A DNA stretch of 32,000 nt from an uncultured archaeon (lineage in GTDB: Archaea > Asgardarchaeota > Jordiarchaeia > Jordiarchaeales > Jordiarchaeaceae): NCBI GenBank assembly GCA_964510585.1, contig CAZECW010000020.1:1-32000 (forward strand), written 5' to 3'. The position numbers and the translations under genes were made by a program. This document shows positions 20,656-25,117 of the stretch, piece after piece. Within the stretch, counting starts at the first letter, position 1; every line of letters begins with the position of its first letter. The notes under the pieces were generated by a model that had not been told where the DNA came from, did not search any database, and saw only the letters and a program-made list of their open reading frames with translations.

Positions 20656-21609
20656 TTGAATAATATGGATGGCGCAGACTATGGTACACTAATAATTTTA
20701 ATGGTGGTTGTAATCTTCATATTGTTGGCATTAATTGTGCCCAACATAAGAATATTGAAGGAGTACGAGAGGGCCGTAATATTTAGGTTGGGAAGAGTGG
20801 CTGGAACCAAAGGACCAGGTATAGTGTTTCTTCTGCCCCTCATAGACCGAGCTGTTAAGGTGGACCTAAGGGAAAACTACTTCGAAATTCGGAGACAAAT
20901 GTGCATAACAGGGGATAACAGCCCTTTGGACATTGATGTGTTAGTCTACTACAGAGTGATTAATCCTGAGGATAGCGTGGTTAAGATTAAAGACTTTCGG
21001 GGCGCAGCCATTGGTATTGCACAAACCACCCTGAGATCGGTAATTGGGGACATTATGCTTGACGATGTGCTCGCCAAAAGAGAATACATCAACACTGTTC
21101 TCAGAGATAAGCTGGACGAGATGACTGAAAGGTGGGGTGTTAAGGTCACCAGTGTTGAGATCCGAGAGATTCTCCCTCCCAGCCGGGTTCAAAACGCTAT
21201 GGTTCGCCAGATGGAGGCAGAACGGATCAGGCGAGCTATGGTCATTGAGGCTGACGGTACCAAAGAAGCAGCGATTAAGGTGGCTGAAGGTGACGCGCGC
21301 TCCGAGATTCTGAAGGCTGAGGGAGACCGTGAGGCGGCTATCTTAGAGGCGGAGGGTGTGAAGCAGAGCATTATTTTGGAGGCGGAGGGTGAAGCATTAG
21401 CTCTTGGTAAGGTTTTTGGAGTTGTAAAGGACATTGATAGTAAGACTATGACTTTACAGTATCTAAAGGCTCTGGATGCGCTGGGGAATAATGAACAAAC
21501 GCGTATGATATTTCCATTAGATTTCTCTTCTCTTACGGGAATGGTCTCGGAACATGTGGATAAAGCATCTGAAGAAGAGGCTCATAGTTCTAAGAAAAAA
21601 GTCAAATAG
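20656..21609 (+). CDS. SPFH/Band 7 (stomatin/QmcA-like) membrane protein
   Basis: N-terminal TM helix, EYERAVIFRLGR, GPGIVFLLP, TTLRSVIG, WGVKV, repeated AEG..AAI.EAEG. Confidence 0.95.
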   Translation: MNNMDGADYGTLIILMVVVIFILLALIVPNIRILKEYERAVIFRLGRVAGTKGPGIVFLLPLIDRAVKVDLRENYFEIRRQMCITGDNSPLDIDVLVYYRVINPEDSVVKIKDFRGAAIGIAQTTLRSVIGDIMLDDVLAKREYINTVLRDKLDEMTERWGVKVTSVEIREILPPSRVQNAMVRQMEAERIRRAMVIEADGTKEAAIKVAEGDARSEILKAEGDREAAILEAEGVKQSIILEAEGEALALGKVFGVVKDIDSKTMTLQYLKALDALGNNEQTRMIFPLDFSSLTGMVSEHVDKASEEEAHSSKKKVK

Positions 21610-21656: not shown

Positions 21657-21974
21657 TCAAATTTTCTTAACCTTTTCTTTGATTTTGTCGAAGTCGCCGA
21701 CTTCCAGCACAATTGGGAGCTGGGCATACCCTGGTAAGCCATGTGTGATTTCTTCGAGCAAGTATATCAGCGCTTCTTTAGGTGTCAAATTCCTCTCCTC
21801 TAGATTTGCCTCGGGTAATGTTAACGACGCTTCCACCCATTTTTCCTTAGTTGCGGAATCTGTTGGGAACAGGCAGTAAATATAATCCTCGGTATTGATG
21901 ATTATGGAGGGGGTTTTGGTCCAAGCCTCGTCGAGGTATTTAAGCATTTTTTCAACATTTTTTTCCTTAGACAT
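21657..21974 (-). CDS. Hypothetical protein (105 aa)
   Basis: ORF with GGTGA RBS 4 nt before the ATG at 21974; no recognisable family. Confidence 0.75.
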   Translation of the reverse strand: MSKEKNVEKMLKYLDEAWTKTPSIIINTEDYIYCLFPTDSATKEKWVEASLTLPEANLEERNLTPKEALIYLLEEITHGLPGYAQLPIVLEVGDFDKIKEKVKKI

Positions 21975-22196
21975 TGATTCACCAACCACTATTTGGGAGC
22001 GAGTTCTATAGATTTAACTATCTTAATTAGACAGAATTCACTAATAAAAATATGTCCTATCTTAATTATGGATTAGCCGTCTTGTCTATTATTTAAAAGA
22101 CAATCCCTTAAAAACATATTAGTTGTGAGCTTAGGGTATAGTTTAAATATTTTTCAACGTACTATTTTAATCCAAAATACTCTTGGTGGAGAATAC

Positions 22197-23432
22197 ATGA
22201 AGACTATACAAGTAGTTGTACCAACTGTAGAATCAGGGCGAATAACAAAGATTTTAGGTGATTCCGGAAGAGATTTCTCGACGGTTTCAGGGAAGGAGAA
22301 TACCCTAATTCTAATCACCTCAGAGGACGACGATGTAGATGCGGTTCTATACGAGTTAAAACGTTTGGGTGTGGGCAGGGAGTTCGGAAAAATTCAGTTA
22401 ACTCCCTTAACTGCCTCTCTGCCTTCGATAATTACAAAGAAACCCTTAATTTCCTTCAAACGTTCATCCAGCGATGAAATTATCCAGATGGTGGAAAAGT
22501 CTGCTAAAATCAACATTAATTACATTGTGTTAACAATCCTTGCGGGCGTTTTGGCATCTTTAGGACTACTAGGGAACAATGCCGCAGTAATAATTGGCAG
22601 TATGGTGGTATCCCCCCTTATGGGACCAATTACTGGTACCGCTATGGGAACGGTTCTCAGTAAAAGAGAAATGTTTATGGATAGTATTAAGGCAGAAGCT
22701 GTAGGTATTCTTCTCGCTATAGCTCTTGGTTTCTTCTTGACTTACTTATTCCCGAGTGCTGCGCCAACTTCTGAGATTTTAGCCAGATCCCGACCAAACA
22801 TAGCGGATATGGCGCTGGCTATAGCTTCAGGTTTTGCGGCCGGTGTGGCTCTCAGCGGTGGTCTAGAATCTACACTGGTGGGAGTGGCGGTGGCTGCTTC
22901 GCTTCTTCCCCCCGCAGCAAACATTGGGGTCGGCATAGCTTTGGCTCAGTACGGTATTGCCGCAGGTTCGCTTGAACTATTATTAATCAACATTTTCAGC
23001 ATAAATCTTTGCTGCACTGCACTGTTCTGGATTCAGGGAATAAGGCCTGCGGTTTCTGTAAGGAAAGAAAGAGTGGCTGCAAGGGTTTTACGTAGAAGGC
23101 TGGTTATCGTTTTAATCGCTCTATTAGTTTTGGCGATGCCAATAGGCGTCACAACCCAGAGCGTGTACAAGCAAGCAAAGTACACGAATGTTGTCAACAC
23201 AGCTATTTACTCTCTAGCTCTACCGCCAAATAATGCTCTCCCCGGAAATGTTTGGACCCTATATGATCCTACAACAAACACACTCTGGGTTACTGCCCTA
23301 ATATTTACGCCGTCAGGCGTTGTCCCACCGGATCTTGCTCAAACTCTCTCTCTAATCATATCCTTAGGTACAGGAATTCCGACAGTAACAGTTTTGGCAA
23401 GTGCACAAGCCACGATACTGAGTCCCATATGA
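22197..23432 (+). CDS. TIGR00341 / DUF389 family membrane protein
   Basis: AVIIGSMVVSPLMGPI, EILARSRP, LVGVAVAASLLPPA; GGTGGAG RBS before ATG 22197 (ORF track start at 22125 is probably too long). Confidence 0.9.
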   Translation: MKTIQVVVPTVESGRITKILGDSGRDFSTVSGKENTLILITSEDDDVDAVLYELKRLGVGREFGKIQLTPLTASLPSIITKKPLISFKRSSSDEIIQMVEKSAKININYIVLTILAGVLASLGLLGNNAAVIIGSMVVSPLMGPITGTAMGTVLSKREMFMDSIKAEAVGILLAIALGFFLTYLFPSAAPTSEILARSRPNIADMALAIASGFAAGVALSGGLESTLVGVAVAASLLPPAANIGVGIALAQYGIAAGSLELLLINIFSINLCCTALFWIQGIRPAVSVRKERVAARVLRRRLVIVLIALLVLAMPIGVTTQSVYKQAKYTNVVNTAIYSLALPPNNALPGNVWTLYDPTTNTLWVTALIFTPSGVVPPDLAQTLSLIISLGTGIPTVTVLASAQATILSPI

Positions 23433-23591: not shown

Positions 23592-24374
23592 ATGAAGAGG
23601 CATAGAGAAATGAGTGAGAAGGTTTGTCCAAGTTGCGGGAAGACCGCTAAGGCGGGTATGAAATACTGCATGTACTGCGGAGAAAAGCTAGAGGAAAAGG
23701 ATGAGTGGTTCAGCGAAGAAAAATCAGAAGAAACGCAGTTGGAATCTTTTCATGAAGCCGTCGAAGAGATTTCTGGCAAAGAGGAGATTCCGGAGGATAT
23801 TAAGTATCAGTTAGAGTTGAGAACAAAACTGGAAGAACTAATTGGGGAAAGATCTGAGCTTACCAGGGAGATTGATAGGATGATGGAGGGATTGTCAGGC
23901 GATATATCTATTGAAGAGTACAGAAACAAAATAAAGAATTTAAAAAACCGGGTGGCTGAACTCAAGAAGGAAGAGAAAGACATAGAGAAGCTAATAAAAC
24001 CTTTACCCTTAGAGAAAATATCTAAAGAAAAAGAGGAACTGAAGGCGCGATTAGATAAACTTAAGGAAGTTTACAGATCTAAAGAAATCAGCAATGAAAC
24101 ATTCGAAAAGCTACGCAAAGAATACGAAAAAGAACTAGAAGATGTAAAGAAAAGACACAGAAACGAAAAAGACAGGGTGGAGAGCTGGATTGCACAACTA
24201 GAAAAAGAGAGAAAAAACATCCAAGAAACTTTAGAGCTACTATATGCAAGACACAAAACAGGAGAATTGGCTGAAGGGGAATACCAGAAAAAGAAGGAGG
24301 AACTGGAAAAAACCCTTAACAGAACTCAAATAAGCCTAGAAAATTTAAGAATAGAGGTACGCCAGTGGGGCTAA
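23592..24374 (+). CDS. Zinc-ribbon plus CdvA-like coiled-coil protein
   Basis: CPSCG-x9-YCMYCG; three helix-(G/K)-(D/E)-(I/L)-helix hairpin repeats; possible alternative start at 23610. Confidence 0.8.
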   Translation: MKRHREMSEKVCPSCGKTAKAGMKYCMYCGEKLEEKDEWFSEEKSEETQLESFHEAVEEISGKEEIPEDIKYQLELRTKLEELIGERSELTREIDRMMEGLSGDISIEEYRNKIKNLKNRVAELKKEEKDIEKLIKPLPLEKISKEKEELKARLDKLKEVYRSKEISNETFEKLRKEYEKELEDVKKRHRNEKDRVESWIAQLEKERKNIQETLELLYARHKTGELAEGEYQKKKEELEKTLNRTQISLENLRIEVRQWG

Positions 24375-24778: not shown

Positions 24779-25117
24779 TTGGTTGGGAAACCATGCCAAC
24801 CCTCTTGCCAGTTCTTTCAGTGTACACAGCGCGCACTACAACCGAGAAGAACTAAACGGGGAACAGAACTTTTTTGCTCTTGGGGCGAAGATCTCTGCAT
24901 AGGGCCGCAATGCATACATGCGGACTGTGTTAGAAAAAAATTAAAATCAGACCTTACATGTGGTCTTGAGCCGCCCAAGCCTCAACAATTTAAAAAAGTT
25001 GAACAAGAATTCGAAGTAGAACCCGTAAAAATATCTGAGAAGTGGTCTCTTGATCATGTTCCCATAAGAGCGAAAACACTGAAGAGGATTAAGGCCCTTA
25101 AATATGACATAGACTGA
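24779..25117 (+). CDS. Small 8-Cys metal-binding protein, function unknown
   Basis: C-x3-C-x4-C-x17-C-x6-C-x4-C-x4-C-x10-C; GGAG RBS; TTG start. Confidence 0.75.
   Translation: MVGKPCQPSCQFFQCTQRALQPRRTKRGTELFCSWGEDLCIGPQCIHADCVRKKLKSDLTCGLEPPKPQQFKKVEQEFEVEPVKISEKWSLDHVPIRAKTLKRIKALKYDID

Follow-up and report, generated by a model that had tools for sequence, protein, structure and literature searches.

A zinc-ribbon protein of Asgard archaea with a CdvA-like coiled coil, encoded apart from ESCRT and cell division genes

Asgard archaea are thought to use adaptors of the ESCRT-I/II type (ESCRT, the endosomal sorting complexes that are required for transport) in place of CdvA. In the ESCRT-III division machinery of archaea, the part regarded as diagnostic and TACK-specific is CdvA (Makarova et al. 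2024, 10.1101/2024.02.06.579148). The CdvA of Sulfolobales (Pfam PF18822; PDB 9s9g, 9s9h, and 9s9i) consists of a PRC domain followed by a three-helix coiled coil (Drobnic et al. 2026, PMC12818579). Lateral filament contacts are made by the PRC domain, longitudinal contacts are made by six hydrophobic residues (A90, L94, I100, I149, M153, and I156) whose mutation abolishes polymerisation, and a C-terminal peptide (E3B) binds CdvB (PMC12818579). CdvA-like proteins also occur beyond cdv loci in Bathyarchaeia, and arCOG03733 of the Thermoproteales joins a zinc ribbon to a long coiled coil and a CdvA-like domain (Makarova et al. 2024). For Asgard archaea, the same study defined the adaptor Znr_PH_CC_SB (asCOG cog.011556), and a 2023 preprint cites asCOG cog.004117, which is labelled CdvA. 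Here, we describe a further protein of this kind, encoded by the open reading frame (ORF) at 23592-24374 in a 32,000-nucleotide stretch of an uncultured Asgard archaeon of the Jordarchaeia/Freyarchaeia (the window; positions 1 to 32,000 of contig CAZECW010000020.1, or C20, of assembly GCA_964510585.1).

Homology of the coiled coil to CdvA

The CdvA-like coiled-coil model PF18822 matched residues 153-245 of the protein at 36.7 bits, above its curated cut-off of 30, and a whole-genome scan found this to be the sole place in the assembly above that cut-off. CdvA of S. islandicus was reached weakly by the single sequence (E 0.8) and by a profile of the close family (E 0.03). When a profile built from 29 diverse family members (A3) was searched against 177,635 PDB sequences, the best match was S. 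islandicus CdvA (9s9g; E 5.8e-6), in an ungapped alignment of 100 residues that spans both turns and the long central helix. The CdvA segments RALEELYNKQEIPKSDY and LKMSYISSEIPENAY aligned gap-free onto repeats 2 and 3 of the protein in HMMER. Structure gave the same partner: Foldseek with the AlphaFold model placed CdvA at rank 1 (E 0.11), and the model superposed on CdvA at 2.3 Å over 127 residues. In both proteins, three helices form an antiparallel coiled coil whose two turns carry the pattern E-I/L-x-x-x-x-Y/F. We conclude, from profile alignments and a predicted model, that the helical C-terminal half of the protein (its last three helices) is truly homologous to the CdvA coiled-coil domain. 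A sequence-only reading of this DNA had proposed a CdvA-like coiled coil by comparison with the Sulfolobus CdvA sequence; its parallels for repeats 2 and 3, and their spacing, were correct. It had also asked whether searches would return just generic coiled-coil or SHOCT similarity, and they returned CdvA as the top PDB match instead.

The anatomy of the whole protein also agrees with that reading, which had listed an N-terminal CxxC/CxxC ribbon, an acidic linker, and three repeats (coordinates are in the table below). The AlphaFold model (mean predicted local distance difference test score, pLDDT, 81.7; above 90 in the helical part) has five helices, at residues 68-99, 107-134, 139-162, 168-222, and 228-259, and each of the three repeat motifs (residues 97-115, 156-178, and 216-238) lies at a helix-turn-helix junction in it. 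Repeats 2 and 3 matched each other when their sub-profiles were compared with hhalign (E 3.9e-5, probability 70%), and repeat 1 matched either of them weakly (P about 0.002), in the correct register. The hairpin formed by the first two helices lies outside the sequence alignment with CdvA and corresponds to the one extra repeat that had been noted. The ribbon cysteines are C12 and C15 (CPSC, residues 12-15) and C26 and C29 (CMYC, residues 26-29); all four are retained in 66-67 of 69 relatives in the family alignment, and the Pfam zinc-ribbon models fall narrowly below their cut-offs (24.9 bits against 25 for Zn_Ribbon_1). The linker has an isoelectric point of 4.2, with 13 D/E against 3 K/R, its pLDDT is below 50 across residues 35-62, and its length differs between relatives. 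Family members of 290-350 amino acids were considered as possible PRC-bearing forms, and this was ruled out; they merely have longer linkers behind the ribbon. A scan against NCBIfam gave only sub-threshold coiled-coil noise of the SMC/Rad50 type and listed no CdvA model. Residues are numbered here from the first ATG of the ORF. Because the closest homologues begin MSEK, translation probably starts at the second ATG (M7, at 23610), which would give a protein of 254 amino acids.

Jordarchaeia/Freyarchaeia are the source of every one of the 15 closest homologues. PF18822 is precomputed for 13 of them, and NCBI names some 'CdvA-like protein'; this kind of protein is already known and its family already auto-annotated. 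A description of an Asgard family with the extra hairpin and with the partner gene c1 (see below) was not found in the literature searched. A related-locus search of genome contigs returned five close Jordarchaeia/Freyarchaeia loci only, and a second family copy in the same genome, at 47846-48652 on contig C33, is a paralogue of the ∼30%-identical type (P0015). At E ≤ 0.001, an exhaustive profile search returned 1170 cluster representatives; many matched in the zinc ribbon only, and dozens matched over their full length (240-330 amino acids). Sources that carry a name all belong to Loki-, Thor-, Hermod-, Odin-, or Jordarchaeia or to 'Promethearchaeota', and no match outside Asgard archaea went beyond the zinc ribbon. 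At E ≤ 1e-5, 168 of 400 Asgard genomes matched the family, with up to four copies in some genera, and this is an underestimate because a hidden Markov model of the coiled coil alone picked up additional members (E 1e-20 to 1e-49) in families that had scored weakly. As judged by these profile matches, the family is spread across Asgard archaea and shares with CdvA the coiled-coil domain only.

Differences from CdvA and from its known relatives

CdvA occurs in TACK archaea and the present family in Asgard archaea. CdvA begins with a PRC barrel, whereas the protein described here has a four-cysteine zinc ribbon at that place (residues 8-33), followed by the acidic linker and the extra hairpin. 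A Pfam scan found no PRC match in the protein, and the PRC matches of the genome are separate ORFs (open frames of 77 and 103 amino acids, on contigs C60 and C126). The residues that make longitudinal contacts in CdvA filaments are not conserved. By sequence alignment, A90, L94, I100, I149, M153, and I156 of CdvA map to K156, V160, I166, E215, A219, and K222. The position of K156 is K/R in 54 of 69 relatives and that of E215 is E/D in 48 of 69; the position of K222 is variable, mostly charged or polar, and charged in 46 of the 69. On this mapping, the family does not conserve the hydrophobic head-to-tail interface that CdvA needs for its filaments. CdvA ends in the E3B peptide and has cdvB and cdvC as gene partners, and here we found neither. 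In the model, the protein stops with helix 5 at residue 259-260, leaving no tail for a beta peptide, and the family alignment shows no conserved C-terminal motif.

Snf7 matches lie on contig C187 and a Vps4_C match on C140, and neither domain was matched on C20, the contig of the window. Across 36 family loci from many GTDB families, whose gene contexts we compared, an ESCRT gene adjoins the family gene in none. The two Snf7 (ESCRT-III) proteins of the genome consist of the Snf7 domain alone, and since they are just 211 and 203 amino acids long, they have no room for the winged helix that binds the CdvA tail. A canonical CdvA was not found in this genome. We conclude that the protein is not a CdvA orthologue and that it is without every part that makes CdvA a division protein. 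The sequence-only reading had anticipated much of this, including the ribbon in place of the PRC barrel, the missing C-terminal ESCRT-III-binding beta peptide, and a gene outside any cdv or ESCRT locus. Its description of the protein as 'filament-forming' is left without support, given the absent PRC domain and three contact positions occupied by K, E, and K, and 'paralogue of CdvA' overstated a relationship in which the domain alone is shared, by a family that is Asgard-wide, in a genome without a detected canonical CdvA.

Of the other described systems, arCOG03733 shares the domain order, as compared by its published description, and both it and the present family are encoded apart from a canonical cdv operon. 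It belongs to another phylum, however, and is paired with a ribbon-less paralogue (arCOG03734); in the present family, the paired protein is c1, which is small and unrelated. Znr_PH_CC_SB is encoded in ESCRT loci and combines three zinc ribbons with a PH domain; the protein described here carries a single ribbon, lacks a PH domain, and has no ESCRT genes beside it.

Candidate functions and the neighbouring gene c1

We consider it somewhat more probable than not that the protein is a soluble, highly charged scaffold or adaptor, not a filament, belonging to the Asgard-wide family described above. Its five helices would form a rigid antiparallel coiled coil, with the zinc ribbon tethered to it by the floppy acidic linker. 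The coiled coil could serve as a platform for docking or oligomerisation, either as a dimer or in a complex with a paralogue, with c1, or with both, and its contacts may use a conserved, family-specific surface around W199, R220, and G224-E225. The tethered ribbon would then capture a second partner, which could be a protein or a nucleic acid. Such a scaffold would build no filaments of the CdvA type and would not recruit ESCRT-III in the manner of CdvA; gene order and anatomy suggest that it may work together with c1.

The gene order in question is as follows. Wherever both genes were located, in GTDB families f1, f2, f4, f14, f16, f26, and f31, c1 and the family gene lie at most 4 kb apart, and in 10 of 18 further loci centred on c1 (f27, f30, and f31), a family member is directly downstream on the same strand. 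In the genus studied here, a DUF389 gene separates the two in five of six genomes; in a complete genome of the same genus (G117, locus L052), they are adjacent and divergent, without the intervening DUF389 gene. Searches for relatives of c1 in Pfam, in the PDB by sequence, and in the ESM Atlas returned nothing usable, and its predicted model, which is confident, has no detectable fold relative.

Several observations weigh against a scaffold that is partnered with c1. In families f8, f10, f11, and f13, the coiled-coil protein is present and c1 is not, and the samples of f5, f6, f17, f20, and f24 have c1 without a family member nearby. Part of the linkage falls within a longer conserved block (PhoU_div, the tRNA-splicing endonuclease EndA, c1, and the family gene), so it could be inherited gene order and not function. 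The case against filaments has a weakness of its own, in that the mapping of residues onto the CdvA filament interface follows a sequence alignment and not a superposed structure. We regard as rather unlikely the further proposal that the zinc-ribbon/CdvA-like protein and c1 make up a module of two proteins specific to Asgard archaea, which would be a scaffold system not described so far. If it were true, the module could be an Asgard counterpart of the CdvA layer, positioning or tethering membrane-remodelling or SPFH assemblies, or else a new coiled-coil cytoskeletal element.

Four other explanations have to be weighed, and we think each of them unlikely. The protein might be a filament-forming analogue of CdvA that templates ESCRT-III at membranes, in division or in vesicle budding, with the ribbon replacing the PRC domain and the ESCRT-III contact made without an E3B tail. 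The coiled coil, which is truly CdvA-like, is the very element in which CdvA makes its head-to-tail contacts, ESCRT-III is present in the genome as two genes, alongside a Vps4-like gene, and the two family copies in this genome (up to four in some lineages) could co-polymerise. Against this stand the charged residues at three of the six longitudinal contact positions (K156 and E215 conserved, K222 variable), the absence of the PRC domain, which is the source of both lateral contacts, and the lack both of an E3B tail and of a winged helix for it in the ESCRT-III proteins. Besides the complete lack of adjacent ESCRT genes in the 36 loci, the ESCRT-III locus of the genome has a 512-amino acid ORF of its own, which has the zinc ribbon alone in common with the family, and the genome also carries two FtsZ/tubulin genes, both outside the window.

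A role as an ESCRT-I-like subunit appears equally improbable. The protein would here be an analogue of Vps23 or Vps37, with a stalk and a steadiness-box hairpin, and together with other hairpin subunits it would make up a headpiece through which ESCRT-II/III receives cargo. HHpred similarity relates the CdvA hairpin to the ESCRT-I steadiness box, and the architecture of arCOG03733 has been likened to those of Vps23 and Vps37 (Makarova et al. 2024); common ancestry of the CdvA and Vps23 hairpins has been argued in the 2023 preprint. Chains of ESCRT-I (Vps23, Vps28, or Vps37) are not listed among the PDB sequence and structure matches of the family.

We likewise give little credence to a role linked to RNA or the ribosome, with nucleic acid as the ligand of the ribbon and a large ribonucleoprotein as the docking site of the coiled coil. 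The block of PhoU_div, tRNA-splicing endonuclease, c1, and the family gene recurs in at least six GTDB families, and the best PDB sequence match of the close-family profile (A1) is 8whn (E 2e-4, across both turn motifs), the cytoplasmic domain of Lokiarchaeal OST1 (ribophorin I), which binds ribosomes (PMC11417166). With the broader profile, however, this match drops to E 0.054, and 8whn superposes well on hairpin 1 only. By itself, gene order is weak evidence; in the present genome the block is broken, and the Pfam and NCBIfam scans detected no RNA-binding domain in the protein. Finally, convergence, with a generic charged coiled coil whose SHOCT-like turns owe nothing to CdvA, is very hard to credit when PF18822 scores above its curated cut-off, SHOCT (PF09851) scores below its own (19.1 bits against 27, residues 213-238), and CdvA is the single best PDB match by sequence and by structure, gap-free over both turns and the central helix.

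Related modules and neighbouring genes

The coiled coil also appears in other settings. A compact HerA/AAA P-loop ATPase is fused to the helical region of the family in P0048/P0173 (Odinarchaeia, 524 amino acids) and in P0134 (494 amino acids). Here the ATPase, at the N terminus, replaces the zinc ribbon, and the C-terminal tail of ∼190 residues matches family-profile positions 60-249, equivalent to residues 66-255 of the protein described here, within a helical region at positions ∼43-249. Several Asgard frames of ∼420-490 amino acids carry the same coiled-coil module, and because of these frames and the match of 8whn to profile A1, a CdvA-like coiled coil may also form the tail of OST1. OST1 is a membrane glycosylation subunit, and the cytoplasmic domain is its tail; the protein described here is soluble. 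A conserved Asgard family that bears the CdvA-type coiled coil without the division-specific parts shows that this coiled coil is a portable module, one which predates the systems that use it or moves between them. Portability is also seen in the HerA-type fusions, and the weaker sequence similarity to OST1 suggests a related tail there. The family gene and c1 offer a concrete gene pair for study in the few cultured Asgard archaea, and the practical value of this will be modest until a function is found.

Table 1. Coordinates, in the window, of the family gene, its parts, and selected neighbours.
Feature	Position	Strand	Description or basis
Zinc-ribbon/CdvA-like coiled-coil gene	23592..24374	+	260 amino acids as read; ORF list, sequence
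N-terminal four-Cys zinc ribbon	23613..23690	+	Residues 8-33, matched by Pfam Zn_Ribbon_1 and Zn_ribbon_3
Acidic disordered linker, residues 35-65	23694..23786	+	Composition; pLDDT of predicted model
Extra N-terminal helical hairpin, helices 68-99 and 107-134, turn motif EGLSGDISIEEY	23787..23999	+	AlphaFold model
CdvA-like three-helix coiled coil, helices 139-162, 168-222, and 228-259; family-specific W199	24000..24371	+	
c1, Asgard-only protein of ∼108 amino acids, fold alpha-beta4-alpha-alpha	21657..21989	-	Most constant neighbour of the family gene
DUF389 membrane-protein gene, between c1 and the family gene	22125..23432	+	Pfam PF04087
SPFH/Band 7 (stomatin-like) gene	20656..21609	+	Pfam PF01145; recurs close by at 9 of the 36 loci, three GTDB families
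Small Cys-rich ORF, 112 amino acids (cluster c14)	24779..25117	+	Directly downstream; co-directional in 5 of 36 loci, three GTDB families

Most neighbours across the 36 loci are lineage-specific housekeeping genes. Ribosomal protein L10e, POR gamma, a metallo-beta-lactamase, NifU, a TPR protein, a thioredoxin-reductase-like protein, and winged helix-turn-helix regulators were considered as partners and dismissed as housekeeping and lineage-dependent. Of 400 Asgard genomes, 280 have c1 as a single copy, and all its known sources are Asgard; in the f5 and f6 genomes, it is divergent from a gene for a ∼1230-amino acid protein with N-terminal CxxC pairs (loci L107 and L109). Through rearrangements, three GTDB families have kept the SPFH/Band 7 gene close to c1 and the family gene, and SPFH proteins have been linked by context to ESCRT-type systems (Makarova et al. 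2024). The Cys-rich ORF has no Pfam match; it probably encodes a real small metal-binding protein, because its place directly downstream is conserved in three GTDB families.

The ESCRT-III genes of the genome itself lie on C187 (locus L011, 7721-13205, minus strand), where two Snf7 genes bracket a 1012-amino acid HerA-like ATPase and a 345-amino acid protein without a Pfam match, apparently as one operon. The 512-amino acid ORF, which has no Pfam match, converges on this operon; in hhalign, the zinc ribbon is all that it has in common with the present family.
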